A stretch of 32,000 bases of DNA from Gottschalkia acidurici 9a (lineage in GTDB: Bacteria; Bacillota; Clostridia; Tissierellales; Gottschalkiaceae), in contig NC_018664.1 in assembly GCF_000299355.1 (NCBI RefSeq), positions 1,440,380 to 1,472,379 on the forward strand. Direction: 5' to 3'. This document shows positions 9,278 to 23,337 of the stretch, in pieces; within the stretch, counting starts at the first letter, position 1, and each line of letters opens with the position of its first letter. A program made the translations under genes and the position numbers. The notes beneath the pieces were generated by a model that saw only the letters and a program-made list of their open reading frames with translations, searched no databases and was not told the DNA's origin.

Positions 9278-9619
9278 ATGATAACTTCATTAATATCAAA
9301 TTTAACTTTTTTAATAGAACCTATTTTGTTACTAGTAGGATATGTTTCTAATAATAATTCTTTTCCGAAACCTTTATCGCAAGAGGAAGAAAGTCATTAT
9401 CTTATTCTATATGAGCAAGGTGATGAGAATGCTAAAAATATATTAATAGAGAGAAATCTTAGACTAGTAGCACATATAGTTAAAAAATATAATAATACAG
9501 GAAGAGAAACAGACGATCTTATTTCAATAGGAACAATAGGGCTTATTAAAGCTATAAATACATTTGACAGGAATAAAAAAGTAAGATTGGCTACATATGC
9601 AGCTAGATGTATTGATAAT
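9278..9619 (+). CDS. sigK: sigK 5' segment (pro-sigma-K residues 1-114), interrupted by the intervening element
   Basis: GGAGG lies 11 nt upstream of ATG 9278. The segment has a pro-sequence-like hydrophobic leader, then YVSNNNSFPKPLSQEEE, then region 2 (NLRLVAHIVKKY, DLISIGTIGLIKAI, LATYAARCIDN). After base 9619 the frame reads 14 unrelated codons (PIITFRNEFAIAQK) and stops. Confidence 0.93.
9609..9619 (+). repeat. Left copy of the 11-bp direct repeat (attL core)
   Basis: GTATTGATAAT, identical to 21167-21177. Encodes ..C-I-D-N of sigK. Confidence 0.9.
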
Positions 9620-9678
9620 CCAATCATTACTTTTCGGAACGAATTTGCCATAGCACAAAAATAAGCCCAGCCTTTCCA

Positions 9679-11319
9679 TTACCTTTTTTCATATTTAGCA
9701 CCAAACATAACTATATCTATATTTTCTCCATCCCATGTAATTCTGTCTACTAAATTTCTAATTAGACTTCTCTTTTCATCATCTTCGGCATCATCAATCG
9801 TATTCTTAAAAATATTTATCATACGGTTCATTATTTCAAAATTTTCTTCTAGAGAGTGCTTGTCATCAATGCTTTCCCTTAAATCTAATAACTTTTCTTT
9901 AAGATTAGCATTTTCACTTTCGAGTTTATTAATTTGATCTAATATGTGCTTAGCTGCAAGACTTCCTTCTCCTTGTGCTAGAGCATTGATTAAGTTAGCT
10001 ATAGACTTGTTGTTAGATTCAATGTTTTTTTTAAGTATATCAATTTCAGACTCTATATTACTTTGAGATGTTTCTACAGCTACTTTATCATCTTTAATTT
10101 TACTATGAAGTCTTGATTCTTGAGAGGATAATCTTTTAAGTTCTTCTATAACTAATTTATCTAATTTATCACCTCGAATATTCTTGATGTTACAGTTCTG
10201 CCCACGACTCTTTTCTTTTAACTCACATAGATAATAGTATGCTATAGATTTATCTTTGTTAACTCTAGTAGCACCTTTTCTCATGAAACTGCCACAGTTT
10301 TCACAAATCAGTATTCCACTTAATAAAGCATTTGTATTTATGTATCTCTTTCTTAATCCTTTGTCTCTATTCATTTCCATTATTTCATTAGCTTTAATCC
10401 ACATATCACTTGAGATAATACCTTCGTGATCCCCAACAGATATTATCCAGTCTGATTGGTCTCTATTTCTATCAGTAGTACCTTTTACTTGTGTAGTCTT
10501 ATTGTAAGCCATGACTCCATGCTCTCCATCAAAATCAGTTTCATCGGCAAATATTGCATGGCCATTGCCTATAAGATAATTGTAAAGCTTTTTATCTGCT
10601 GTAGCATATACTGGATTCTCTAAGATTATTTTTAAAGTATGTACATAGAAGTTAGCACCATTTTTTGATTTTATATTATTTCGTAGACAATAAGTTTCTA
10701 ATCCAGTAAGAGATTTGATCTCAATATACTTATTATATAACAATTTCACTAACTCAACTTCTTCTTGTACAGTTGATAATTTGTATGCTTTTCTTTGTTT
10801 TCCATTTTGATCCAACATTATAATTTCCTTAGAGATAAATCCGGTAGGAGTAATACCTCCTAGCCAGCGCCCAGTCTTAGCTAATTGTTGCAAGTTATCT
10901 CTTATTCTTTCCGCTATAGTTTCTCTCTCTAGTTGAGCAAATACACTAGCAATGTACATCATAGCTCTACCCATAGGGGTAGAGGTGTCAAACTGCTCTC
11001 TTATAGACACAAAAGAAACATTATAGTTTTGTAGCTCTTCTATAAGTACGGCAAAGTCTGCTATATTTCTGCTTATTCTATCTAACCTATAGCATATAAG
11101 TACGTCAAATTTCTTTTGCTTAGCATCCTTTAACATAAGTTGAAATTGAGGTCTATCAGTAGTCCCACCAGAAAAACCTTCATCTTCATATACTGTTATA
11201 TCGTCATTTGAAATATTAAAATGATTATATGCGTACTCTTTACACATTTGTACCTGATTCTCAATAGATTCACCTTTACCGGTAAATTTTGATTTACGTG
11301 AATAGATTACAGCTTTCAT
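9679..11319 (-). CDS. spoIVCA: Large serine recombinase (SpoIVCA-like sigK element excisionase)
   Basis: 546 aa. Resolvase catalytic domain (AVIYSRKSKF..ENQ, ..LICYRLDRISRN), recombinase domain, zinc ribbon (CENCGS..YYYLC) and a long coiled-coil tail. AAAGGGG RBS. The 3' end lies 60 bp from the left junction. Confidence 0.93.
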   Translation of the reverse strand: MKAVIYSRKSKFTGKGESIENQVQMCKEYAYNHFNISNDDITVYEDEGFSGGTTDRPQFQLMLKDAKQKKFDVLICYRLDRISRNIADFAVLIEELQNYNVSFVSIREQFDTSTPMGRAMMYIASVFAQLERETIAERIRDNLQQLAKTGRWLGGITPTGFISKEIIMLDQNGKQRKAYKLSTVQEEVELVKLLYNKYIEIKSLTGLETYCLRNNIKSKNGANFYVHTLKIILENPVYATADKKLYNYLIGNGHAIFADETDFDGEHGVMAYNKTTQVKGTTDRNRDQSDWIISVGDHEGIISSDMWIKANEIMEMNRDKGLRKRYINTNALLSGILICENCGSFMRKGATRVNKDKSIAYYYLCELKEKSRGQNCNIKNIRGDKLDKLVIEELKRLSSQESRLHSKIKDDKVAVETSQSNIESEIDILKKNIESNNKSIANLINALAQGEGSLAAKHILDQINKLESENANLKEKLLDLRESIDDKHSLEENFEIMNRMINIFKNTIDDAEDDEKRSLIRNLVDRITWDGENIDIVMFGAKYEKR

Positions 11320-11348
11320 TTTAAAACCCCTTTATGTTTATTATGTCA

Positions 11349-11357
11349 ATTATATCA
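11349..11357 (-). promoter_or_regulatory. Candidate extended -10 (TGATATAAT) upstream of the recombinase gene
   Basis: The minus strand reads tttGATATAATtgac about 30 nt upstream of the start. There is no convincing -35 and no clear CATA-type mother-cell -10. Confidence 0.3.
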
Positions 11358-11427
11358 AATTTTGAAATAATAAAAAGCTAATAAGTTAATAATAGATTCA
11401 ATATTTATTATATTTATTTAAAAACAT

Positions 11428-11464
11428 AATAAGAGGCCGAATATAAAGTAGTCAGCCTCTTATT
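11428..11464 (-). terminator. Hairpin terminator after the Coat_F gene pair
   Basis: 10-bp stem aataagaggc / gcctcttatt with a 17-nt loop. On the minus strand it is followed by a T-rich tract. Confidence 0.55.
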
Positions 11465-11478
11465 GTGTAAAACTATAA

Positions 11479-11772
11479 CTATTTTATTGTATCTTGAGAT
11501 TCACTATAAGCATCTAGTAATTGTTGAGTAGGCGTATTATAAGGTTTTTCCCATCCTTTTTGAACAGATAGTTCTGTTACTGCAGTATGTCCGCCTAATA
11601 CTTGGTTTAAGCTTGCTAAATACATTGCTCTTAATTCTGGAGTAGTGGCAGCCATACTAGAAGTAAGATATGCTGTTGCACCAGCAGAAGCACTAGAAAT
11701 CATGCTGTTAGCTATAACTTCATCACTTATATTTGTAGTATCTTTTACTTTATTAGTAAGAAAAGAAGCCAT
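11479..11772 (-). CDS. Spore coat protein, Coat_F-domain family
   Basis: GGGAGG lies 8 nt upstream of ATG 11772; the listed start 11811 overlaps the upstream gene. ISDEVIANSMISS..TPELRAMYLASLNQVLGGH..QKGWEKPY fits the Coat_F pattern. Confidence 0.75.
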   Translation of the reverse strand: MASFLTNKVKDTTNISDEVIANSMISSASAGATAYLTSSMAATTPELRAMYLASLNQVLGGHTAVTELSVQKGWEKPYNTPTQQLLDAYSESQDTIK

Positions 11773-11773
11773 A

Positions 11774-11992
11774 TTATTGTACCTCCCTTGTTGGTGTAAC
11801 TTGATTTTCATTAATAAACTGTTGAATTCCTTTTATTCTTCCCTCTGTTGCTAGAATACCAGCTTCAGCTTGTCTTTTTAAATCTTCATCTGTAATTAGT
11901 GTCTGCATAGCTTTAGAAACTATTAGACCATCTTTCTCCATCTTTAATAAGCCTGTTAGTGATAATAATTCACTTTCCGTAAGTTTTCTCAT
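11774..11992 (-). CDS. Small spore-coat-protein-like partner (Coat_F-related)
   Basis: 72 aa with a GGAGG RBS. LTESELLSLTGLLKMEKDGL..DEDLKRQ resembles the short coat protein usually encoded directly upstream of Coat_F genes. Confidence 0.55.
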   Translation of the reverse strand: MRKLTESELLSLTGLLKMEKDGLIVSKAMQTLITDEDLKRQAEAGILATEGRIKGIQQFINENQVTPTREVQ

Positions 11993-12042
11993 CTTTTAAC
12001 CTCCAACTTGAAAATTAATTTTGATAACATCAATAGTATGTC

Positions 12043-12072
12043 AATTTTAGGACATAACATTCCAGGAACTAA
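12043..12072 (-). promoter_or_regulatory. Candidate mother-cell (sigma-E/K-type) promoter of the coat gene pair
   Basis: The minus strand reads GAATGTT-N15-CATACTAT, about 45 nt upstream of the start. Confidence 0.35.
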
Positions 12073-12331
12073 ATACCAAAAAAAGAATCAATCAAGCAGG
12101 ATTTATATAGATATGAAATAATTGAAACAGAAGAATAACTTTTTATATACAGAAGTTTAAAAAGTCTGTAAGTAACTAGTAAGTTGGAAAGTTAGTGAGT
12201 TTATAGAGATAAAAAAATTATAACTCCTGAAATATTTGAAGAATTAAAAGGATGGAGGGATTAAAGGGAAGCACAGTTGGTTCCCAAATTGGATAGTATG
12301 AACCAACTGCAATTTAGAAATAGCAGATTAT

Positions 12332-12535
12332 CTAACTCATTTTTATACAAGGATAAGAGCCTTTTATATTATCACGATGATACTTACCTTTAGAAGAGGC
12401 AGTTAGTAACCCTTCGTATATATGTTGCGGAATTTCACTATAAGCATATGTGCCGCTATGAAATTCAATTAATAAGTTTTTAGATGAAGGATCATAACTA
12501 ATAGTTTTCAAGTTACTTGAAGATACAGGTATCAT
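12332..12535 (-). CDS. KTSC-domain protein
   Basis: 67 aa with an AGGAGGTG RBS. SSNLKTISYDPSSKNLLIEFHSGTYAYSEIPQHIYEGLLTASSKGKY is the KTSC (lysyl-tRNA-synthetase C-terminal-like) domain pattern. Confidence 0.75.
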   Translation of the reverse strand: MIPVSSSNLKTISYDPSSKNLLIEFHSGTYAYSEIPQHIYEGLLTASSKGKYHRDNIKGSYPCIKMS

Positions 12536-12793
12536 TTAAATACATTCACCTCCTATAAGCAAATATTATTATATGAAAAGAAGTGGATAATTAAACAAGA
12601 AGATACTGGTTAACATAAAAAGTGAAAATTGACAAGAAGCATTAGAGAGTAATATCAGTAATAATATGGGCTATAATTAGCACTAATAAAATCACTAGAT
12701 GATAAAACAATTAGATTAATGACAAAGTTAAAGTTAATAGGACAAAACATATAAGGCATATATATAAACACTAGCAATAAGGAGTTGAGTGTT

Positions 12794-13000
12794 TTGAATA
12801 TCAGAGTACACTTTCCTACGACGGAGGAAGGAATGGAGGAATTACAAGAGAGGATAGATGAAGCACATGCACATTTAATTATGAATCGTATAAATAACCT
12901 TAACTGGAGTTATGAGGACAAAATTGCTTTAGTTAAGCAAATAAGAGGAGAGCTAAAAAGAAGAGGTGAGCAGAAAGTGTCCTTGGAGGCACCTAGTTAG
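12794..13000 (+). CDS. Hypothetical small protein (mobile-element associated)
   Basis: AAGGAG lies 9 nt upstream of TTG 12794; the listed start 12785 abuts the RBS. Helical and charged, about 68 aa. No family assignable by eye. Confidence 0.5.
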   Translation: MNIRVHFPTTEEGMEELQERIDEAHAHLIMNRINNLNWSYEDKIALVKQIRGELKRRGEQKVSLEAPS

Positions 13001-13127
13001 TAAAGAAAAGGAGAGTTCATATATAAATTTAAGAATATCTTGCAAAGCGAGTGAATTATTAACTTCATGAAGTTAATAATAAATGAACTTGGATAGAAAT
13101 TGATATTAACTATATTTATTAAGAAAG

Positions 13128-13315
13128 ATGGTGAATGAGAATGAATTTAAATTACGTAAACACCACGTGAAATATTAGGTTTAAGTAGAAATGACGTAGT
13201 GGGATCACTAGTTGATAGAAAAATAGATATAAATTAAGAGGTCTAACATGCTCTGAAAGAGGAGCAAGGAATCCATCGCCAGATATTATTGTAGAACTTT
13301 TTTAAATATAGAAAG
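13128..13315 (+). pseudogene. Decayed XRE-type HTH regulator remnant
   Basis: Broken frames read ..NEFKLRK / TPREILGLSRNDVVGSLVDRKIDIN* / ..PSPDIIVELF*, which resembles an XRE HTH disrupted by frameshifts and stops. Confidence 0.35.
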
Positions 13316-13513
13316 AACCATTTTAAACTTAAAGAGATTTCAGATATAAATGAAGAATAGGACAAGCATATAGTTATGAAATACTAGATAACATAGATTG
13401 AATAATTTAAGGAACATAGTACTGAAGCTACTACAAGAACATAGAGAATTATATGACGTATTAAGTAAATTACTTACCATAATTACTAATATGAAAGCAT
13501 TCCTAAACTAGTA

Positions 13514-13885
13514 ATGATTGATAAGAGACTTAGTATAGAAATTAAGGCTATATATGTCTACATGGCAAGCTATGCAGGAGCAGAAGACACAGCTTTTCCT
13601 GGAGTTGAATTAATGATAGAGCATTTACGTATAAGCGAAAAAAGATTTTATAAATATAGAAAGGAGTTAGTAGATCAAGACTATGTTTCAATAACTAAAA
13701 CTAGGAAAGAGAATAACATCTATACACTAAATCAAATAATAAAATCTCAACACAGTCAATTTGAATGCGTTCAAAGTGTTGCTACTAATAATAGTAGTAT
13801 TAAAAAACAACACAATAAAAAAATAGAAAAAGTCATGTGTGTGTTAGATAAAAAATTGTTTTTGATAAGGCTAGAAAGATACTAA
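13514..13885 (+). CDS. Helix-turn-helix (HTH_36 / phage replication-initiator N-terminal-like) protein, probably truncated
   Basis: LSIEIKAIYVYMASYAG..AFPGVELMIEHLRISEKRFYKYRKELVDQDYVSITK is the HTH_36-type pattern. There is no RBS, the C-terminal half is low-complexity, and broken reading frames continue to about 14120. Confidence 0.45.
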   Translation: MIDKRLSIEIKAIYVYMASYAGAEDTAFPGVELMIEHLRISEKRFYKYRKELVDQDYVSITKTRKENNIYTLNQIIKSQHSQFECVQSVATNNSSIKKQHNKKIEKVMCVLDKKLFLIRLERY

Positions 13886-14203
13886 AAGTATCTAATGAAG
13901 ACATTGACATTGTAAAAGAGAAATATGAAATTACTAAGATATCTGGGTATAAAATCTAATGATATTCAAGATAAAAGCAATATAAGAGAATAGGTAGATG
14001 CCTATTTCACAGTTTTAAGCAAAGGATAAGTAAATATAGTCTAGAATAATTGGAAAAGACGATACTTGAAAGAAGACAGGAAAGTAATTTAAAAGACTTA
14101 GACTATGTTAGAATAATTCCTTAGTAAAAAAAGTAAGTGGACAAACTCCACTTACCCCAAGTTTAAAAATAAAATAAGGTGCGATTGTTAATATTAGTTT
14201 AAT

Positions 14204-14695
14204 TTAATATATCATATAGTCATCATCATTATAGTCATAAGACCTATCATAATCTTTATGGTTATCACTATGCTTACGACGATCACAATCTTCCAAGATT
14301 TCAAAAGCTCTAGCTACTTTATTTGCAAAATCTATAGGATCATCTATAGAAAAAAAGTGAATATAAAATAATCTTGGCTTGTCAAATAGCCAGTGATTAT
14401 GAAGAGCTGTAACTTCAATGCCTTCTCTACGAAGTTCACTAATAAATGGATTAATTTCTTCTTGCAATATAACAGTTTCTCCTAAGTTTAGAGTTTTACC
14501 TTTACAATCCATTGATTCAAATGAAAAAAGAGCGTTAAGAACAAGTGGACTTTCAGTTCGTATTCCTTCAATGGTTGCTTTAATATTTCTCATACGCGTT
14601 ACTGCACATAGACCATCAGTGGATGTTAAAATCTCACTTTCAAGAATACGTGCGAATCTTCTACACAAGTTAGATGAACTATTATTTGAACTCAT
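14204..14695 (-). CDS. DUF1259-domain protein with acidic Tyr-rich C-terminal tail (putative coat-associated)
   Basis: GGGGGAG RBS. GETVILQEEINPFISELRREGIEVTALHNHWLFDKPRLFYIHF is the DUF1259 (LppY/LpqO) core. No signal peptide. The tail reads HKDYDRSYDYNDDDYMIY. Confidence 0.8.
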   Translation of the reverse strand: MSSNNSSSNLCRRFARILESEILTSTDGLCAVTRMRNIKATIEGIRTESPLVLNALFSFESMDCKGKTLNLGETVILQEEINPFISELRREGIEVTALHNHWLFDKPRLFYIHFFSIDDPIDFANKVARAFEILEDCDRRKHSDNHKDYDRSYDYNDDDYMIY

Positions 14696-14717
14696 TATTA
14701 TTTCTCCCCCTCAATAA

Positions 14718-14744
14718 TATAGTATGTCCAAGGCTTAAAATTGT
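14718..14744 (-). promoter_or_regulatory. Sigma-K-type promoter of the DUF1259 gene
   Basis: The minus strand reads AC-N16-CATACTATA, a full match to the B. subtilis sigma-K consensus AC-N16/17-CATAnnnTA. The -10 lies about 25 nt upstream of the start. Confidence 0.55.
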
Positions 14745-14949
14745 TACTAAAAATTATAAGGAGGTGAATATTTTAATAGATTATATGAGTTATTAGAGGT
14801 GTACTTTAATAGCTAGTGGTGTCTTGTAAAAGCTAAGTATCATAATAAGTGTCCGTGATATAGGATTAGATATTTTATTCTTGGTTCAATCATGGTCTCA
14901 TAAGAGAAAAATAATGGCAGTGCTAGATCATATACTCTCAGATCAGATT

Positions 14950-15455
14950 CACTTCAGTCTTATTCATCATTTAGATCACCAGTAGCATGCAATATTTGGA
15001 CTTTCTAAATATAAACATTTGTATAGTACCTGAGGTAGAATTCTCATAGATATATATTTACTTCTGTCTTTTTTTATATCTTTGTTTTCATAAGCAGCAA
15101 TAAAATTCCATCCACGATCGTTAACTGCTGTTATACGTACAGTTCCTTGTATCATATAAGCCCACTCTGATTGCTGATGCCAATGAACCTCACGTATGCC
15201 ACCAGGTGTCAATCGCTTCCATTGTGGTTGCTACTGGAAGTTCCCTAGCAGTAATCTCACGAGACTGTCCACTTCGTCTTAATACCATAGTAGTATCAGA
15301 AAAAGAAAATTTCAAGTTGGGAATCACACCAGTATCTGTAGCATGTGAGACAAGCATGTTATGATTTCGAAGATCCCGAAGGATATTACGTGGGTCTGCA
15401 TCGGTTGCACCATCTCCATTTTTTATAGGATGTGGTATATATCCAGTAAGTTAGT
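14950..15455 (-). pseudogene. Oxalate decarboxylase (bicupin OxdC/OxdD-like) remnant
   Basis: The minus strand reads [67 protein letters not shown], then a frameshift, then [34 protein letters not shown]. It is colinear with the B. subtilis OxdC N-terminus. The start codon is missing, the frame is shifted, and the gene is truncated within the first cupin. Confidence 0.8.
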
Positions 15456-15555
15456 TACTATTACTCTAATATCTTATTAAGTAAGGATAATATGATTAAC
15501 ACAAATAGCTTGGATAGCATGGATCAATATAAACTAATGAGATGCTCACAGTTAC

Positions 15556-15792
15556 TTTACATTTAGAGAGTACTGTGCAGAATAAATTTAAGGCTCATTA
15601 ACGGACATATTATTTAAGTTGCAATTTAATAAATAGAAATGTTTTTGAAAATTAAATAATACGGTGTTCAAAGGTTGATGAAATTTATGTCGAACCATAA
15701 AATATATGTTACATATGGTATAGTATTAGTATACGTTAAGTTGTAGTAATTAGATATTGTGTCATAGTTCATTTACAAAGGAGAAGGACATA
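15556..15792 (+). repeat. Repeat module R1 (conserved leader/promoter region)
   Basis: Starts tttacatttagagagtactgtgcagaata. Colinear with 16672-16914 by eye at roughly two-thirds identity. Ends at the RBS of the 15793 gene. Confidence 0.75.
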
Positions 15793-16044
15793 ATGAAAAA
15801 AGATATAAATATAAAAAAATTATATTTATTCACATTTCTATCTTTCATTTTAATCTTATTATTTCTTTATTTATTTTCACAGAAAGCTCCATACTTTTAT
15901 ACGGGATTCGATTACCATACAATACCAAATAGATTAAGCAAACTTGCAAACTTCACATTTATAATTTTAATTCTGATTAACTTTATATGTGTATTATTAT
16001 CTATTTTTTATTCAATAAAGATAATATTTAATAAAATTAAGTAA
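15793..16044 (+). CDS. Small membrane protein (2 TM)
   Basis: AAGGAGAAGG RBS upstream of ATG 15793. About 83 aa with two hydrophobic spans. Confidence 0.6.
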   Translation: MKKDINIKKLYLFTFLSFILILLFLYLFSQKAPYFYTGFDYHTIPNRLSKLANFTFIILILINFICVLLSIFYSIKIIFNKIK

Positions 16045-16151
16045 CAGTCTGACTTAGTTTGTTCTACACTAACTGAGTCACAAAATTATTGTTTTATAAC
16101 ATAACTGTTAAAGAATATGCAATAATACGATAGATAATAAGAGGTGAATTT

Positions 16152-16349
16152 ATGGATAAAAGAGATAAACAAGGTAAACACATGATAGGGAAATGTAAAA
16201 AAAATTCTATGATTAATTTGTCAGAGTCAATAAATCGTTCAACAATAGGTGATTTAGGTGAGTTAACAAGATTGGGATGGATCTCCAATATTATCATTAT
16301 AGTTATTATTATTGGAATATTATTTTTTCTCTCCAAATGCTCTAATTAA
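16152..16349 (+). CDS. Small membrane protein (basic N-terminus, single C-terminal TM)
   Basis: AAGAGGTG lies 7 nt upstream of the ATG. 65 aa, ending ..WISNIIIIVIIIGILFFLSKCSN. Confidence 0.6.
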   Translation: MDKRDKQGKHMIGKCKKNSMINLSESINRSTIGDLGELTRLGWISNIIIIVIIIGILFFLSKCSN

Positions 16350-16440
16350 GTTAAATCATAATCATATTAGAGTATTATGATGTAAAAACATATCAGTAAA
16401 CACGCTTGATCTATAATATTTATAACTTGAGGGTTACTTA

Positions 16441-16488
16441 TATTATTCAAAGTTGAATTTTACGGTATTATTATATTTAAATTCAAGT
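16441..16488 (+). repeat. Repeat S1 (conserved promoter-like sequence)
   Basis: tattattcaaagTTGAATtttacggtattattatatTTAAATtcaa matches 18745-18790, with the same 18-nt spacing between the -35-like and -10-like hexamers. Confidence 0.6.
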
Positions 16489-16547
16489 AAAAAGATAAGT
16501 TTAAAGTCAGCAAGATTAGAAAGGAGCTTATGAAATAGAGGTGACAT

Positions 16548-16649
16548 ATGGAAGATAAGAAAGAAAAACTAAAAGAACAAATGAAGGAATATATAGATAA
16601 TTTACTTAGATTAGCAGAAGATGAAGGACGCTGGACTATTTTGAAATAG
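16548..16649 (+). CDS. Possible 33-aa ORF (MEDKKEKLKEQMKEYIDNLLRLAEDEGRWTILK)
   Basis: GAGGTG RBS 5 nt upstream. Lies downstream of the S1 promoter-like repeat. Below the ORF-track length cutoff, with no homology assignable. Confidence 0.3.
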   Translation: MEDKKEKLKEQMKEYIDNLLRLAEDEGRWTILK

Positions 16650-16671
16650 AAGTAAAAAACAATAAAGGTCA

Positions 16672-16914
16672 TTTACATTTAGAAAGTACTATACAGAATA
16701 GGTCTAGAGTTTATTAATAGATAAACTGTTTAAATTACAGCTAAACTCATATAAAAGTTCTTCGAAAATCGAATAATGTGGTGTTTAAAAGTTAACGTGC
16801 TTTTACCTAGCTATAAGATATGTGGAAAATATGGTATAATTTTGATAGTAATTAATTCATAATCGTTAGATATTATGTACAAGCAGTAAGTAAGTCTATA
16901 GGAGGAATTAGTCA
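16672..16914 (+). repeat. Repeat module R2
   Basis: Starts tttacatttagaaagtactatacagaata, is colinear with R1, and ends at a GGAGG RBS. Confidence 0.75.
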
Positions 16915-17250
16915 TTGTATAAGGAAAAAACGAAAATCATCAAACTCATTTTAGAAAAAGATTTAGAGTCTTTATATGTGGGAGTATGATCTCAGCTACC
17001 CTTTTAGGGGTATATGGTCAGGATATTGCTTATTATATAAGTGACCATATAGAAAAATTATCTCCTGTGTATTGTAAGCAATAACACTGATAAGTATAGT
17101 ATTGTTTTTAACTACATCCATATTAATATATATACCCATAAAAAACAAAAACTGAAAAGATTTATTCCATATTTGATTATTAATAGTCTTATAGGTATGT
17201 TGATTTCTATGCTTTCATTATTAGTTATGATTATGTGGTGGGGATAATGG
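16915..17250 (+). pseudogene. Decayed gene downstream of R2 (membrane-protein remnant)
   Basis: GGAGG plus TTG 16915 opens a 24-codon ORF. Hydrophobic segments follow in broken frames (..MISATLLGVYG.., ..FIPYLIINSLIGMLISMLSLLVMIMWWG*). Confidence 0.35.
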
Positions 17251-17316
17251 TAATTACTTTATAATTTTTAGATATAATAAAAATGGGCAAACATTCATGA
17301 AACTGTAAAAGAAGAA

Positions 17317-17523
17317 ATGAATCAAACTATTTTTGTGAAAGATGGCAAGGTAATATGTCATCTACATGGGAATCCTGAAAATACTGGAATAGGGTTCAAC
17401 TTTGGTACATATCTGCTAAATTCAAAAGAAGGCAGATACATTAGTTTTATGTCAAAATCAAAGTTATCATTTAAAATTACGGTCTCAGAGAATGGTATAA
17501 GATATTTTGAATATGTTAAATAA
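17317..17523 (+). CDS. Hypothetical protein
   Basis: 68-aa ORF with a weak RBS and no recognisable family. Confidence 0.3.
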   Translation: MNQTIFVKDGKVICHLHGNPENTGIGFNFGTYLLNSKEGRYISFMSKSKLSFKITVSENGIRYFEYVK

Positions 17524-18039
17524 ATTAATATTCTTCGCAATATTATTTTACGACACAATAGTTAGATAATGCTATATCTGTAATTATGATAGCAGGATAT
17601 GAAAAAAGTTATCTTACTTTTTCGTGATTATTTTTTGAATTGGTGTAAAATCACTTGTTATCTTTCTTTTACCAATACCGAATTCAAAAAGAAATGTATT
17701 TACAACTGACATAAAGATGGTGATAAATCTACCAGATGAAGCAGATTGTGAAGCGATTGTAAGAACTTATACAGCAAAATAATTTAATAAATTTAATATC
17801 CATCAACTCACTAAAATTAAAGATAAAGTAGGAGGAAACATAGAGGGTGATATTCTAGCACTATACTTAAAAGACGGAAAAGGGATTTTGAATTTTTTCT
17901 TTAAAAAAATAAAACTAATGTAAGTTTTGATGATGTTTCGGATGTTAAAATAACTGCTTTTTCTACAATGGGATTGGCCACAGTAGATGAACAGGAAAAG
18001 AGAGTAATCAACGGACAACTTAAATAAGATGAGAAAGGA

Positions 18040-18237
18040 ATGTATTCTTATGAGATCCAACGTTACTATACTCAGTATGAAAAATGGTTTATGGAGTCCA
18101 TTCTTATAGAAGTAAAGTATCAAATTGATGGAAATGGATATGTATCAGTATTTGCAGTAACTACAACAAATGCAGAAGATGGTTCCAATTTCTTTGAAAA
18201 CGAAACATTAAATAATCCTATTGAACCTGAAGAATAA
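18040..18237 (+). CDS. Hypothetical protein
   Basis: 65-aa ORF with an AGAAAGGA RBS. Preceded by a frameshifted ORF remnant (17830-18028). Confidence 0.4.
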   Translation: MYSYEIQRYYTQYEKWFMESILIEVKYQIDGNGYVSVFAVTTTNAEDGSNFFENETLNNPIEPEE

Positions 18238-18325
18238 AATCAGTAAAGTTACAGATATTTAATTTTAAAGGTCAGTATCTATGTTGAGACTTTTTCTATT
18301 CAAAATAAATAGGAGGTGTAGAGAA

Positions 18326-18730
18326 TTGAGTAAGCATAAGGCAGATTTGGATTTAAGATCAAGTATGATTTTAGCTCTTATACTATTAGCTTTATCACTA
18401 ATTGTAAGTCAGATTTCTGATGAAAAGATTAAAATGAATATAATAATTATTTTATTTAGCATTATGACTATTGCACTACTATATAGAAGTTATAAAGACT
18501 TTAAAGATAAGACTTACTCTACTACTATATTTATAGCATTAACTAACATAGCAATAATCATTTTAGGTATATTATATATGTTTGTATTTTTAAGATACTA
18601 TCAAGTTACAGACATTAACCTTATAATAAAGATGAGAAAAACTGAACGTATACTTAGTGTATTTATATTTGCTATGATATTTTTAAAAAACTTTTTAAGA
18701 AGCGAAAGATTTGTAAATAGAGATAAATAG
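18326..18730 (+). CDS. Membrane protein (about 4 TM)
   Basis: AGGAGG lies 9 nt upstream of in-frame TTG 18326. 134 aa with four hydrophobic spans. Confidence 0.6.
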   Translation: MSKHKADLDLRSSMILALILLALSLIVSQISDEKIKMNIIIILFSIMTIALLYRSYKDFKDKTYSTTIFIALTNIAIIILGILYMFVFLRYYQVTDINLIIKMRKTERILSVFIFAMIFLKNFLRSERFVNRDK

Positions 18731-18744
18731 TATTTAAAACACCG

Positions 18745-18790
18745 TATTATTCAAAACTGAATTTTACGATGTTCTTATGTTAAAATTCAA
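18745..18790 (+). repeat. Repeat S2
   Basis: tattattcaaaaCTGAATtttacgatgttcttatgtTAAAATtcaa is a copy of S1, again placed immediately after a membrane-protein gene. Confidence 0.6.
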
Positions 18791-18840
18791 ATGAAAATTA
18801 ATGAAAACATAGGTATGAAGTTAAAAAATTGATAAGAAGG

Positions 18841-18870
18841 ATATACAGAATAGATTTAAGGCTCATTAAT
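18841..18870 (+). repeat. Repeat R3 (partial copy of R1/R2 5' end)
   Basis: atacagaatagatttaaggctcattaa is nearly identical to R1 gtgcagaataaatttaaggctcattaa (15576-15602). Confidence 0.65.
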
Positions 18871-18905
18871 AAATTAATTAATTTTAAAAATTTTAATAAA
18901 TAAGA

Positions 18906-18945
18906 GGCAAATTCCCTTATCTAAATAAGCATAAGGTAATTTGCC
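18906..18945. terminator. Bidirectional hairpin terminator between convergent genes
   Basis: 15-bp stem ggcaaattcccttat / ataaggtaatttgcc with one mismatch. The minus-strand version is followed by a T-rich run. Confidence 0.65.
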
Positions 18946-18959
18946 GTTATATTACAATA

Positions 18960-19505
18960 TTAAGATATAGGATCCTGAATTAGTGTTGCAAATACAATTT
19001 GATGGAAGTGTCCATCATCAAAAGTTGTTCTAGCCTTAACAAAATGAATGTGTTTTCCGTTACCTACATCAATAGCTGGACCAGTTTCAGTACCAAGTTC
19101 ATGATGGTGGTTTACGAAGAAATCAGTATTAGTTAGTAGAGCATGTTTATGGCCACCACCAGGTAGAGGAATTGCCTCACTAGTAACTCCTGCAACACGG
19201 TGATTATGACGATCGTCACACTCTTCCGCTAATTTAGTGCTACCTAAGAATTCATGCACGTGAGATTGAGTTCCTTCTTCATTTTCATCACAATGGTCAT
19301 GACGCTTACGTCCATAATACTCATTTTCTCTATAGTCATCATATTCATTATAATAACGATCTTTATCACAATCGTGTTTATGTTTCTTTTTATCATCTTT
19401 ATTACAATCATGTTCATGCTTCTTTCTATTATCCTTATCACAGTGGTTATGACAAGGGGGATTTATTCTCTTTATGCTTTGAATAATATGACAAAATAGA
19501 CACAT
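18960..19505 (-). CDS. YmaF-family protein with Cys/His/Lys-rich repetitive N-terminal extension
   Basis: The C-terminal 100 aa (HVHEFLGST..HNHRVAGVT..GGGHKHAL..HHHELGTETGPAIDVGNGKHIHFV..DGHFHQIVFATL) match the YmaF HxH repeat pattern. The N-terminus carries 12-aa CDKDNRKKHEHD-type repeats. The RBS is weak. Confidence 0.75.
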   Translation of the reverse strand: MCLFCHIIQSIKRINPPCHNHCDKDNRKKHEHDCNKDDKKKHKHDCDKDRYYNEYDDYRENEYYGRKRHDHCDENEEGTQSHVHEFLGSTKLAEECDDRHNHRVAGVTSEAIPLPGGGHKHALLTNTDFFVNHHHELGTETGPAIDVGNGKHIHFVKARTTFDDGHFHQIVFATLIQDPIS

Positions 19506-19561
19506 CCTTATTATTAATTTATTGGCGAGTATACAATTTTTGTTATATACAAGCTATATTA

Positions 19562-19588
19562 CATTATATGCACCTATCCTTAATGAGT
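19562..19588 (-). promoter_or_regulatory. Candidate sigma-K-type promoter of the YmaF-like gene
   Basis: The minus strand reads AC-N16-CATATAATG (last base G instead of A), about 60 nt upstream of the start. Confidence 0.4.
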
Positions 19589-19715
19589 GACTTGAAAAAA
19601 GTGTTTTACTTAAACATTTAGGAAGTTAAAATTAAAAGAAAAGTTAATTCAAACTTAGAAGAAATGATGTGAAAAAAGTATATAATTAAATAAGTCCTAC
19701 CGAATATACCGACAG

Positions 19716-19756
19716 ACACTTTAGACAAAACTACTAAGATTAAAGTGTATTTTTTT
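19716..19756 (+). terminator. Orphan intrinsic terminator
   Basis: Hairpin acacttta-N17-taaagtgt followed by atttttttatt. It is nested inside an outer cctacc/ggtagg pairing (19694-19769). No plus-strand gene lies upstream. Confidence 0.5.
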
Positions 19757-19967
19757 ATTGTGGGTAGGTTCAACATGAATTACCTTTTGAGGATTAAAAT
19801 AGTTATAGGTTAGGCTATAGAGCTAATTTATAGTTTTTACCTAAATATTATACTATAATCTTCAAATATAGTACTTTGTAAAGTGTTCCTAGAGTCTGGT
19901 AAATATATGATAAAATAAGTGTAATTAATTATATTTACACAAACACAATATCATATGTGTTAAGGAT

Positions 19968-20321
19968 GTGAAGAGAATAGAATTAAGAAAAATAATCTCA
20001 AAAAGTCTACAGGGAGTACTAGGTGTAATAAGTTCAATTCTATTTACAATAAGTTTTCCTTATTTCGGATGGAACTTTGTAATAAATGTTACAAAAGCAT
20101 TTGAAAATATAGGTTTTAGTATTGATCTAGTTGGACGTCCAGGAACTTATGATCCTGGAGCAGTTATTGTATCAGGATTATATTTATTGACAATATTGTT
20201 AGCTTCTTATCTTACTATTAAAAAGACAAAGTATAAACTCTATGGTAAAATAATTTTGTTCAGTGGAATACTCATGACTATCATGGTTTTTGTATTAGTT
20301 AGTTCTATGATATGGTTCTGA
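19968..20321 (+). CDS. Membrane protein (about 3-4 TM)
   Basis: 117-aa hydrophobic ORF. The GTG start has a poorly spaced AAGGA. Confidence 0.45.
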   Translation: MKRIELRKIISKSLQGVLGVISSILFTISFPYFGWNFVINVTKAFENIGFSIDLVGRPGTYDPGAVIVSGLYLLTILLASYLTIKKTKYKLYGKIILFSGILMTIMVFVLVSSMIWF

Positions 20322-20850
20322 TTATACATAATGATAAACTACAGTATGAGTTTTGAATGTTTAACATTAGAGTAAATGAAGATAGTTAATTTAGTGAACT
20401 AAAGGCTGGATCATATCAAGCTATAGAGGTATATTTTTCATGCCTAATATTTACTTAAGCTATATCATATATTTAACCATGTGAAACTTAATTAGAATAG
20501 AAGATGACTATATAATTGAGTTTTAATTATACTTTCTGTTTCAGTGATTTTTATTATTTTTTGACTGTTATTTTGGAAAAAAGTAAGAGTAGATCTTATA
20601 CACAATTATCATTAAAATAACAAAAGATTACGAGATATATGGAAATGCTATGGGAAAGGCGACTTTATCTATAAGAATATTAATTCTGGTTATGGTAATG
20701 ATTTTTCTACTTGATAATTCTGAATTAATTTCAGTAAGGTTTTTATATGTATTCTATTTATTAATATGATATAGAAAAAATATAACGGTAGCATGATCTA
20801 GTTTAATCACAAAAATTATTAAATTGATAAGTAACAATACAAACTGTATT

Positions 20851-20895
20851 AATAGACTAGACTATTGAATGACTCTATATCTAGTCTATTTTTTA
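20851..20895 (+). terminator. Orphan terminator-like hairpin
   Basis: 10-bp stem aatagactag / ctagtctatt with a 20-nt loop, followed by a T-run. Confidence 0.4.
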
Positions 20896-21007
20896 TATAG
20901 AAAACAACAAAATATGTACAATTAAAAGAATTAATATAAAAATCACCTTTTAACTTTAATTTTAAGACTACTAAAAACAACTATAATATTATAAAAAATT
21001 AAGGAGC

Positions 21008-21150
21008 CTAATTGAAATGCATCTCAATTAATTTACTAAAATCTTCTTTAGTTAGATTTAATGATCTTCTCGTGCTTTTTATTATTCTTCCACCTACAGT
21101 ACTAAGGTTATATAAAGACTTTAAGTTATCAACAGTCTTGCTGAAATAAA
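21008..21150 (-). pseudogene. Truncated XRE/cI-like HTH remnant at the right end of the element
   Basis: The minus strand reads ..NLSTVGGRIIKSTRRSLNLTKEDFSKLIEMHFN*, which is an HTH helix-1/2 pattern. It has no start codon and ends prematurely. Confidence 0.4.
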
Positions 21151-21166
21151 ACGTTCCAGATCACAA

Positions 21167-21177
21167 GTATTGATAAT
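21167..21177 (+). repeat. Right copy of the 11-bp direct repeat (attR core)
   Basis: GTATTGATAAT is followed in frame by GAA ATA CTT ATG (EILM), which continues sigK. Confidence 0.9.
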
Positions 21178-21549
21178 GAAATACTTATGACGATACGATC
21201 GTGTAAAAAAACACAATCAGAGGTTTCACTACAAGACCCTATAGGAGTAGACCGTGAGGGTAATGAATTATCACTTATGGATGTACTGGGAACAGACCCA
21301 GATGAAATAACAGATAAGGTTCATCTCAAAATCGAAATAAAAAAGCTTTATGATAAGATAAGCAAGGTTTTAAAAGCGAGAGAAAAAACCATAATACAAC
21401 TTAGATATGGTCTTTTAAATGGTGAACGTAAGACTCAGAGAGAAATAGCTGATATGCTTGGAATTTCAAGGTCATATGTATCCAGAATTGAAAAAAGAGC
21501 TGTACAAAAATTATCAAAAGAATTTAATTATGAAATTAAAGGAAGGTAA
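21178..21549 (+). CDS. sigK: sigK 3' segment (residues 115-237; regions 3-4)
   Basis: In frame from 21178: EILMTIRSCKKTQSEVSLQDPIG..REKTIIQLRYGL..KTQREIADMLGISRSYVSRIEKRAVQKL. This is colinear with B. subtilis SigK ..ENEILMHLRALKK..VSLHDPIG..ISRSYVSRIEKRAL. Confidence 0.93.
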   Translation, partial: EILMTIRSCKKTQSEVSLQDPIGVDREGNELSLMDVLGTDPDEITDKVHLKIEIKKLYDKISKVLKAREKTIIQLRYGLLNGERKTQREIADMLGISRSYVSRIEKRAVQKLSKEFNYEIKGR

Positions 21550-21780: not shown

Positions 21781-22350
21781 TTACATGTTAGGAGTTATTC
21801 TTCTGATGATTTCTTCTACTTCATTTCCTAATCCAGATATCGGTTTACCATTTCTTACATCTGTACCTAAATTTTCTACTCTTTTGATTAAATCTGGGTC
21901 AGCTGTTACAGCTACATTATTTATATTACTATCTTCTTCTTTTACTTTAGCCTCAACCCTATTCTTTAAGTCAGTAGTAACTTTTCCTTCGGTATTGTCA
22001 TTCGTATTAATACCAACAAGACAAGTATTACCAGTTAATATAACTGATGCATTTTTAACTTCAGGCAATTCTGTTAACTTGTTAGCTATTCTATCAGATT
22101 TCTCTACCATAGAATTATTATCCGTATTAGTGTTTAAGTTATCATTCGGATATCCATCATTTGGATTATTATACAGATGTCTATCTGTACTTTGATTATT
22201 ACTATCTCTAGGCTCTATTCCATTCGTGCTACGAGGAACAGGTTCGTTAGGAGCTATCTTCTTAGGTGTAGTTCTACAACCTATAGATCCTACAGCTACA
22301 GATAGCGTTAAAATAGATAATAAAGAAAATTTCTTTAAACTTTTATTCAA
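21781..22350 (-). CDS. YhcN/YlaJ-family sporulation lipoprotein
   Basis: GGAGG lies 8 nt upstream of TTG 22350. Signal peptide with lipobox (LSVAVGSIGC). C-terminal ..ELPEVKNASVILTGNTCLVGINT..VTADPDL.. is the YhcN/YlaJ pattern. Confidence 0.8.
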   Translation of the reverse strand: MNKSLKKFSLLSILTLSVAVGSIGCRTTPKKIAPNEPVPRSTNGIEPRDSNNQSTDRHLYNNPNDGYPNDNLNTNTDNNSMVEKSDRIANKLTELPEVKNASVILTGNTCLVGINTNDNTEGKVTTDLKNRVEAKVKEEDSNINNVAVTADPDLIKRVENLGTDVRNGKPISGLGNEVEEIIRRITPNM

Positions 22351-22488
22351 TATTAACACCTCCAGTATCTATTATGTCTATATATAAAAAAAATATTTAT
22401 ATTATATTAACATTAGATACTGGAATTTTTTTGAAATATTTAATGGGAGTAAAAAGTTAAACCTAAAAGTTCTTTAAAACTATAAAAG

Positions 22489-23178
22489 CTATCTATAATC
22501 ATAATAATACATATAAGGGTCGTAATTATAGTTACAGTAATAATTACTCATATTGTGATTATTATTACTGTGTTTAAGCATAAACATTTCAAGTCTTTGA
22601 TTAACAATGTTCCAATCTATATTCTCCATAAAAATATCTATATATTTCTTTCTATCTATCCCGAAGTCGATCATATAAGCATGCTCATATACATCTAAAA
22701 CCAATAAAGGATGTGCCATCCAAATAGAGCCTTTATCATGTTCATCCTGACCGTATATGTGAAGTCTTTTATCAATATGATCTATGGCTAATACTACCCA
22801 TCCTCTCATAGCCAAACCAGTTTGCTTAAACAAATTTTCCCATCGTTCAAAACTATAGAAATCTCTTATTATAAGATCAACTATAGGTCCGAATGGACGA
22901 TTATAATTACTATTTAGGTTTTCAAAATATAACTCATGTAATTTAACTCCATCTAGAGCATAAGTTTCTCCTAGTCTTAGACAACGAAGAGGACTATAAG
23001 TAGGATTTGAGTCATTAAATTCAGGAGTTTGATCAAGTATATCCCAAATTTTATTGATATTTCTGACATATCCTTTATAAAGCTCATAATGTTGATCTAA
23101 TTGATTTCTGGAGATTCCTTTTACATTATTAAAATTAAATTGCTTAATATTGATTGTATTTTTTGAACTATTTTTCAT
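22489..23178 (-). CDS. Fe/Mn superoxide-dismutase-family protein with Tyr-rich C-terminal tail (coat-type SOD-like)
   Basis: SOD family motifs LDQHYELY, GVKLHELYFENL and LVLDVYEHAYM. The tail reads NYYCNYNYDPYMYYYDYR. GAGGTGAG RBS. Confidence 0.75.
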   Translation of the reverse strand: MKNSSKNTINIKQFNFNNVKGISRNQLDQHYELYKGYVRNINKIWDILDQTPEFNDSNPTYSPLRCLRLGETYALDGVKLHELYFENLNSNYNRPFGPIVDLIIRDFYSFERWENLFKQTGLAMRGWVVLAIDHIDKRLHIYGQDEHDKGSIWMAHPLLVLDVYEHAYMIDFGIDRKKYIDIFMENIDWNIVNQRLEMFMLKHSNNNHNMSNYYCNYNYDPYMYYYDYR

Positions 23179-23211
23179 AAACTCACCTCATTATATTAAC
23201 TTAGTTTCAGT

Positions 23212-23239
23212 CATTCTATGCAAGTACATACACATAAGT
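23212..23239 (-). promoter_or_regulatory. Candidate sigma-K-type promoter of the SOD-like gene
   Basis: The minus strand reads AC-N17-CATAGAATG, about 35 nt upstream of the start. Confidence 0.35.
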
Positions 23240-23337
23240 GAATAAAGTTGTTTACAATCTTTAAAGTTTGGAGAATATATGTTATTATAAATTCAAATAA
23301 TATATATTCTTTGGATTACTTAGAAAGAGGTGAAAAA

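Follow-up and report, generated by a model that had tools for sequence, protein, structure and literature searches.

The sigK gene of Gottschalkia acidurici 9a is split by an intervening element that carries genes of sporulation families, and this locus raises the question of whether such genes could be read only after the element has left the chromosome. We analyzed a stretch of 32,000 nucleotides (nt) of this genome (NC_018664.1, 1,440,380-1,472,379), hereafter called the window, whose own numbering is used for all coordinates. An element of 11,558 bp (11.56 kb), at about 9620-21177, interrupts sigK, and the DUF1259, YmaF-like and Coat_F proteins encoded in the window are identical to G. acidurici 9a proteins (a 100% match for DUF1259). 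A preliminary description had proposed that the element may be a platform that licenses the expression of its own late spore-surface genes. The explanation that accounts best for the sequences, and towards which we lean slightly, is that host sporulation genes were relocated to a decayed skin (sigK-intervening) element, and that any dependence of their expression on excision is a by-product of the landing site.

The DUF1259 gene and its promoter

The DUF1259 gene (14204-14695, minus strand) is intact and encodes a protein of 163 amino acids (Pfam PF07485, 8.5e-38, 129.3 bits), in which all 49 columns that are invariant in an alignment of 30 single-domain homologues are kept. Its AlphaFold2 model is confident (predicted local distance difference test score, 87), and a search of 50,697 phage records for a phage origin gave no match. 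The protein had been described as lacking a signal peptide and as ending in a tail rich in Asp and Tyr: the tail and a polar N-terminus are present, and the clostridial homologues have short N-termini in which no hydrophobic stretch was seen by eye in the alignment, with no signal-peptide predictor applied. The unit ends at an intrinsic terminator (14130-14158, minus strand), a 12-bp stem followed by a T run, and this terminator region is also kept next to the paralogs of G. purinilytica.

Promoters were scored with two-block position weight matrices (PWMs) built from the C. difficile promoters mapped for sigma-K, for sigma-E and for sigma-F/G (Saujet et al. 2013, Tables S6 and S7). The sigma-K consensus consists of AC (GTAACA in C. 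difficile) in the -35 region and CATA---TA in the -10 region, with 15-18 nt between AC and CATA, and sigma-E has almost the same -10 element as sigma-K. Three motifs of this kind had been quoted in the preliminary description, upstream of the DUF1259 gene (14718-14744), upstream of the YmaF-like gene and in a repeat called R1 (15694-15720), and all three are present. That of the DUF1259 gene withstood closer scoring. Its sigma-K-type promoter (14718-14748, minus strand, AGTAACAA-N13-ACATACTATA) is the top sigma-K match among the approximately 64,000 positions of the window, with a PWM score of 17.0 compared to 6.1 for sigma-E and 4.5 for sigma-G. Its end is 22 nt from the ATG, with the ribosome-binding site immediately following, and a score this high has a probability of about 2e-4 of arising in the 60 nt that precede the start. 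A -35 GTAACA and a -10 CATACTAT were likewise found upstream of both DUF1259 paralogs of G. purinilytica (e.g., AGTAACAAATTTAAATCTTGTACATACTATG), with sigma-K scores of 14.2 and 12.5. The promoter is significant because of this placement and this conservation, and not because of its window-wide score, and the reading of the DUF1259 gene by sigma-K is thus well supported at the level of sequence.

Among 62 non-redundant metagenomic DUF1259 loci, a sigma-K score of at least 12 was reached upstream of 21% of the DUF1259 genes as opposed to 0.5% of the control windows, which were random windows and not promoter regions, some of the DUF1259 loci being, in addition, related to one another. The sigma-E and sigma-G matrices, applied to the same loci as composition controls, gave 2% and 0%, respectively. 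In several metagenomic loci, the -10 element lies 31 nt before the ATG, with the same spacing as in the gene of the element. Single-domain DUF1259 proteins with polar N-termini thus look like a sigma-K-regulon family; the protein of the element may be coat-like, as had been proposed. A second group of metagenomic DUF1259 loci showed another arrangement, with a TTGTCC box that precedes a CATACAxT -10 element by about 21 nt and a divergent YmaF gene that has a sigma-E-type site.

The YmaF-like gene and the split-CotF bicistron

The YmaF-like gene (Curi_c13600; 18960-19505, minus strand) encodes a protein of 181 amino acids with a complete YmaF domain (Pfam PF12788, 5e-37, 126.7 bits; profile positions 2-97 of 97), preceded by a long N-terminal extension rich in His, Cys, Lys and Asp, in agreement with the Cys/His-rich extension already reported. 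A terminator hairpin (18906-18945, minus strand) was read from the sequence downstream of the gene and is kept next to both YmaF copies of G. purinilytica. DUF1259 and YmaF genes are adjacent in G. purinilytica and in 12 of 80 metagenomic loci.

A possible sigma-K-type promoter of the YmaF-like gene (AGTCACTC-N13-GCATATAATG; 19562-19592, minus strand) lies 56 nt before the ATG. It scored 11.5 for sigma-K, 8.3 for sigma-E and 8.7 for sigma-G, its -35 element (AGTCACTC) is weak, its -10 element holds a perfect TATAAT, and the chance of such a site is about 0.02 per gene. The orthologous site of G. purinilytica (TGTCACAC-N13-TAATATAATG) scored 10.9 for sigma-K. In C. difficile, mutation of sigK lowers the expression of the YmaF-like gene CD3620 to 0.04, and the CD3620 protein is spore-associated; the homologue of CD3620 in another strain is a spore-surface ligand of E-cadherin. 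The sigma-K site claimed for the YmaF-like gene is thus present and has a sigK-dependent relative on its side, but its score is marginal, and reading of this gene by sigma-K is to be regarded as marginal too.

The Coat_F protein of the element (11479-11772, minus strand; Pfam PF07875, 8e-17, 61.6 bits for a cut-off of 25.7) comprises 97 amino acids, as do its homologues, since the real start is at 11772 and not at 11811. It forms a bicistron with a gene for a yraE/yraG-like partner of 72 amino acids (11774-11992, minus strand), for which no match to Pfam Coat_F, nor to any other Pfam or NCBIfam family, was found. The "Coat_F pair" of the preliminary description is accordingly one Coat_F protein and a conserved partner. 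The partner also matches phrog_30315 (71 positions, 3e-29) and so has relatives in viral or prophage sequence sets. The layout of 72 and 97 amino acids is unchanged in Tissierella, C. cylindrosporum and Inediibacterium, in all three of which the pair lies outside skin.

The promoter-like site of the bicistron (TGGAATGT-N15-ACATACTATT; 12032-12064, minus strand) is of the sigma-E/sigma-G type, with scores of 10.3 for sigma-E, 5.5 for sigma-K and 4.8 for sigma-G. The sigma-K pattern, AC at -35 with CATA---TA at -10, was not found at the bicistron, where the best sigma-K score was 5.5 and the site reads GGAATG-N17-CATACTATT. The upstream element is kept in the three homologous loci L163-L165 as (G/A)(A/C)AT(A/G)-N17-CATACTA, with the -10 at the same distance. 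The sigma-E matrix scored higher in the window and in Tissierella (L163), and the sigma-G matrix scored higher in C. cylindrosporum (L164) and in Inediibacterium (L165), where it reached 17.7. In B. subtilis, the split CotF homologues yraG-yraF and yraE-yraD are controlled by sigma-G in the forespore, and a cotF-like gene of C. difficile is under sigma-E. The pair appears to be a split CotF of the yraE/yraD type, and its expression would be independent of excision because neither sigma-E nor sigma-G needs excision.

The element, its excision and its remaining contents

The 5' part of sigK (spoIVCB-like; 9266 to about 9619, plus strand) was identified from its open reading frame (ORF) translation and from tblastn matches to sigK halves in related loci, and the 3' part (spoIIIC-like; about 21178-21549, plus strand) from tblastn matches to sigK C-terminal halves. 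A repeat search found the same 11-nt direct repeat, GTATTGATAAT (repeat D12), at both junctions: the attL core (9609-9619) ends the sigK 5' part, and the attR core lies at 21167-21177 (plus strand), at a spacing of 11,558 nt. The fused halves give a complete reading frame, which runs ARCIDN|EILMTIRS across the junction. By eye, the N-terminus of the 5' part looks like a pro-sequence, as in B. subtilis pro-sigma-K; the sigma-K of C. difficile is made without one.

At the left edge of the element, 60 nt from attL, lies the gene of a large SpoIVCA-like serine recombinase of 546 amino acids (9679-11319, minus strand; Pfam Resolvase 1e-41, Recombinase 2e-18, Zn_ribbon_recom 3e-12). Its identity to the recombinases that adjoin a split sigK in 80 other Firmicutes genomes is 45-61%, and a look-up of its exact sequence found no record. 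With its split sigK, edge recombinase and direct-repeat cores, the element belongs to the known class of skin elements. In the survey of Galperin et al., skin elements were found in 15 species, Tissierellia included; the recombinase was their sole common gene, and its position at the element's edge was the rule among those published.

An intact gene for a protein of 71 amino acids (12785-13000, plus strand), which has homologues in 9 of the 80 related skin loci, is a candidate for the recombination directionality factor (RDF). It has a sigma-E-type promoter (12733-12765, plus strand; sigma-E PWM 12.2), and a site of this type, with scores of 8.6-16.3, is found about 20 nt before the start in six of eight homologues. 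The RDF of the C. difficile element skinCd, CD1234, is small and acidic, has 72 amino acids and is encoded by a gene with a sigma-E promoter, from which transcription starts 14 nt before the start codon. The two small proteins are thus of similar size and both have a sigma-E-type promoter close to the start codon, and by this analogy the product of 12785-13000 is likely to be an RDF. A homologue is also encoded by an Oscillospirales phage, in the neighborhood of serine recombinase genes.

This gene and an intact gene for a KTSC-domain protein of 67 amino acids (12332-12535, minus strand; Pfam KTSC 6e-20, with PHROG matches) must be added to the list of intact genes given previously, which was right for the CotF bicistron, the DUF1259 gene and the YmaF-like gene and omitted these two. 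A phage DnaD-like replication gene (13514-13885, plus strand; Pfam HTH_36 and DnaD_N) is truncated to its N-terminal third and covers positions 25-144 of the 314-position PHROG profile of DnaD-like loaders. The presence of a dead oxalate decarboxylase gene was confirmed directly upstream of the DUF1259 gene (about 14976-15447, minus strand; phmmer to OxdC, Pfam Cupin_1). This frameshifted pseudogene retains OxdC residues 7-82 and 87-124, in two frames, and thus the first cupin only; no start codon and no second intact cupin in a single frame, as in a bicupin OxdC or OxdD, were found in the remnant. In B. subtilis, OxdD (YoaN) is an oxalate decarboxylase of the spore coat that is controlled by sigma-K.

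About 4 kb of the element consists of repeats and short ORFs, and 4.2 kb of such sequence separates the DUF1259 and YmaF-like genes. A repeat unit of about 400 nt occurs there in three partly truncated copies, namely R1 (15560-15730, plus strand; repeat families D1, D2, D5 and D8) and related copies at about 16441-16850 and 18745-18880. The unit carries a TRTGnTATAAT extended -10 motif and lies upstream of small ORFs, such as that of an 83-amino-acid protein with two predicted membrane spans (15793-16044). The sigma-K promoter attributed to R1 (15694-15720, plus strand) did not stand up to scoring: its score of 7.3 is that of the background, and it overlaps TATGGTATAGT, a sigma-A-type extended -10 that is kept in the second copy, R2. 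The conserved core of this repeat, TATGGTATA(A/G)T, is a textbook sigma-A extended -10, and R2 has a perfect TRTGnTATAAT (TATGGTATAAT, 16830-16840). No Rfam match was found on the element or its repeats, and a sigma-70 scan was uninformative (64 sites compared to 69.9 in shuffled sequences).

Other high sigma-K scores are scattered over the window. The second-best match (20830-20859, plus strand, AGTAACAA-N12-TAATAGACTA, 16.1) is directed towards attR and the sigK 3' part, but a terminator-like hairpin includes its -10, and the match is probably due to chance. The third (10233-10263, minus strand, 14.9) lies within the recombinase gene. The fourth (15681-15713, 14.4) belongs to the minus strand of R1, upstream of the oxalate decarboxylase pseudogene by about 230 nt, and has a -35 that is not kept in R2. 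Just outside the element, the host gene for a Fe/Mn superoxide dismutase (22489-23178, minus strand), whose product has a Tyr-rich C-terminal tail (NYYCNYNYDPYMYYYDYR), has a sigma-K-like site 33 nt before its start (region 22489-23243; ATTCACTT-N14-GCATAGAATG, 11.0). A gene for a YhcN/YlaJ sporulation lipoprotein (21781-22359) adjoins it.

Origin of the genes, competing explanations and known elements

In the sister species G. purinilytica, the counterparts of these genes lie on the chromosome. They comprise one intact and one decayed YmaF gene and a pair of DUF1259 paralogs, which share 81% and 77% identity with the protein of the element, in a tandem-duplicated DUF1259 and YmaF block (LGSS01000005.1, our locus L081, 3474-10735) in which the second YmaF copy is the pseudogene. 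The family proteins of this block have extensions rich in His, Asp, Lys and Cys. The block adjoins recU, miaB, mutS, mutL and miaA, and there is no recombinase in its vicinity. Since this context recalls the ymaF-miaA-hfq order of B. subtilis, the chromosome appears to be the ancestral site and skin the derived one.

The 80 recombinase-related skin loci were searched by tblastn with all the proteins of the element, and CotF, DUF1259, YmaF and the cupin were absent from all of them. Of the related elements, 17 are complete and range from 2.07 to 11.5 kb, the smallest, that of Brassicibacter mesophilus, holding little beyond the recombinase. A Pfam scan of 77 ORFs from these elements matched 68 families, and no spore families were found among the 25 most frequent of them. 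The larger elements carry metabolic genes instead of phage genes (NiFe hydrogenase small subunit, HycI, HypD, panB, panC and panD, ABC transporters, melibiase, MsrA and MsrB), and their recombinase adjoins either half of sigK. None of the 19 genes of skinCd is sigK-dependent, and only CD1234 responds to sporulation regulators (sigE and spoIIID). As a function, dependence on excision is not conserved among skin elements.

These observations can be assembled into the following scenario. A decaying skin element would have acquired a block of late sporulation genes from its host, comprising the ymaF-like gene, an oxdD-like gene, now dead, and the DUF1259 gene, in addition to a split-CotF bicistron of the yraE/yraD type. 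Ancestral sigma-K-type promoters would persist upstream of the DUF1259 gene and, with less certainty, of the YmaF-like gene. During sporulation, the candidate RDF may lead the serine recombinase to recombine the GTATTGATAAT cores with each other, which would restore sigK and release the element as a circle. Excision of skinCd by its recombinase, CD1231, also gives a circle, and excised skin and gin circles persist through late sporulation in other species. The G. acidurici circle probably cannot replicate, because the sole replication-related gene found on the element is truncated. In the mother cell, the circle might then serve sigma-K as the template for the DUF1259 gene and possibly for the ymaF-like gene. 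Genes of the element that depend on sigma-K would be readable only after excision, because there is no SigK before it. This logic, which was that of the preliminary description, is supported well for the DUF1259 gene and weakly for the YmaF-like gene, but it fails for the CotF pair and for R1. We put forward, tentatively and with less than even confidence, the wider proposal that the decayed element is the sole carrier of the DUF1259, YmaF-like and split-CotF genes, that at least the DUF1259 gene is read by sigma-K from the circle, and that DUF1259 represents an unrecognized, widespread sigma-K-regulon family, probably of coat proteins, in Clostridia.

Several points weigh against the relocation of sigma-K-dependent genes. 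The absence of other DUF1259 and YmaF copies in G. acidurici is deduced from match lists only, and the matrices were trained on C. difficile, which belongs to another class than G. acidurici. No window-wide excess of sigma-K matches was found (13 with a score of at least 11.5 compared to 14.6 in dinucleotide shuffles), and a score of at least 17 arose somewhere in 17% of the shuffled windows (shuffled maximum, 15.7±1.4); the argument that the DUF1259 site is the best match in the window was dropped for this reason, in favor of its position and conservation. The preliminary description had itself warned of chance matches in DNA of this composition, and a count made in the window bears this out for the PWM matches; the strict motif AC-N16-CATANNNTA occurs six times where 2.4 are expected, and its N17 version once for 2.4, counts that are too weak to carry a sigma-K claim. 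The DUF1259 protein had no match in a sequence search of PDB or in a Foldseek search against PDB, and NCBIfam gave no function. For the YmaF-like gene, the sigma-K score exceeds that for sigma-E by about 3 bits only, the YmaF homologues next to DUF1259 genes in Bacillus-type loci have sites of the sigma-E type, and in B. subtilis an early sporulation promoter drives ymaF along with miaA-hfq. The 5' end of the gene is also irregular: there is no spacing between the ribosome-binding site AAGGA and the annotated ATG, and a well-spaced TTG at 19494 opens another frame (MSYYSKHKENKSPLS*) that resembles the N-terminus of the G. purinilytica protein and closes just after a C5 run (GGGGG on the plus strand, 19456-19460), which suggests a frameshift or a homopolymer sequencing error.

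The promoter matches might accordingly be due to chance or belong to other sigma factors (sigma-E, or sigma-A in the case of R1), so that the genes would be expressed before excision or independently of it. The shuffles, the modest excess of the strict motif, the near identity of the sigma-E -10 element to that for sigma-K, the sigma-E-type and early promoters of other YmaF genes, the TATAAT in the -10 of the YmaF-like gene and the position of the R1 site on an extended -10 all fit this explanation. However, chance or another sigma factor does not readily account for a DUF1259 site that lies exactly before the ribosome-binding site, scores low for sigma-E and sigma-G and is kept in the paralogs, for a family-wide enrichment that concerns sigma-K-type sites only, or for the sigK dependence of CD3620, and we consider it unlikely overall.

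A further possibility is that the element has been selected as a self-licensing platform for late spore-surface proteins, expression from the circle being advantageous. Three intact sporulation-type units do survive amid pseudogenes, and the DUF1259 and YmaF proteins, like the host superoxide dismutase, have Tyr/His/Asp-rich extensions typical of coat proteins. The genes of the element are possibly the only copies of the DUF1259 and YmaF families in the genome, which would favor its retention. Yet these genes occur in 0 of the 80 related skin loci, the 17 complete elements carry unrelated metabolic genes, and the same genes lie with the same promoters on the chromosome of G. purinilytica. The CotF pair, moreover, has no sigma-K site, and the oxdD-like gene captured along with the others is dead; in C. 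difficile, sigK dependence was found for no skin gene, and the survey found only the recombinase in common among skin elements. The platform is not supported as a property of skin elements, and as a description of this element we judge it improbable. It is just as doubtful that the genes are mere leftovers of a captured chromosomal block, decaying themselves and no longer of consequence when expressed: the oxdD-like pseudogene directly upstream of the DUF1259 gene, the irregular YmaF 5' end, the 4.2 kb of repeats and short ORFs between the two genes and the second, dead YmaF copy of G. purinilytica would suit such decay, but the DUF1259 gene keeps every invariant residue, its promoter, its ribosome-binding site and its terminator, the YmaF domain is complete, and the CotF bicistron keeps the exact 72 and 97 layout of other species.

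If the relocation of sigma-K-read genes to this element is correct, these would be the first described structural late-sporulation genes that are carried by a sigK-intervening element and need the very sigma factor that it interrupts, and an excised episome, in a cell that is terminal, would be their sole template. This would provide a simple reason for the long retention of decayed skin elements, and if the element is the sole carrier of the genes, the host could not lose it without losing them, which would account for the persistence of a dead prophage in sigK. The locus would also make it possible to test, in a natural setting, whether excised circles are transcribed. Even without regard to the element, a role as late sporulation proteins of the mother cell is predicted, from the family-wide promoter signal, for single-domain DUF1259 proteins, whose genes often have a YmaF gene next to them. 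The effect would be specific to this species and its mechanism follows known rules, so that the locus would represent a curiosity and not a new principle or a general design of skin elements.

Among known systems, the single genes of the element have close counterparts. B. subtilis OxdD is of the bicupin oxalate decarboxylase type, whereas the copy of the element is a frameshifted pseudogene reduced to residues 7-124. The element's YmaF-like gene shares its YmaF domain with B. subtilis ymaF, whose promoter is of the early-sporulation type, and with CD3620, from whose product its own differs by the long His/Cys/Lys/Asp-rich N-terminal extension. The yraG-yraF-adhB-yraE-yraD cluster of B. subtilis shows the same succession of a small N-terminal-moiety protein and a Coat_F protein of about 100 amino acids; the G. 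acidurici pair differs from the yra genes and from the cotF-like gene of C. difficile in being skin-borne.

With regard to whole elements, SP-beta in spsM and gin in gerE of Bacillus are excised in the mother cell, which restores a late sporulation gene, and the element persists without phage production. The papers on these two elements place the recombinase and the RDF under sporulation control and describe no structural spore genes that depend on the interrupted factor; in the literature searched, whose coverage was incomplete, no description of sigK-dependent structural genes on a sigK-intervening element was found either. SkinCd of C. difficile 630, likewise small and prophage-like, lies in sigK and also has its large serine recombinase at the edge; the G. 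acidurici element differs from it by its DUF1259 gene with a sigma-K-type promoter, its YmaF-like gene and its split-CotF pair. The skin element of B. subtilis 168 also lies in sigK, has a SpoIVCA-like recombinase at its edge and is of prophage origin, with a gene content that is not shared. It measures 48 kb, compared to 11.6 kb in G. acidurici, where the phage genes are almost gone and host-type sporulation genes are intact.

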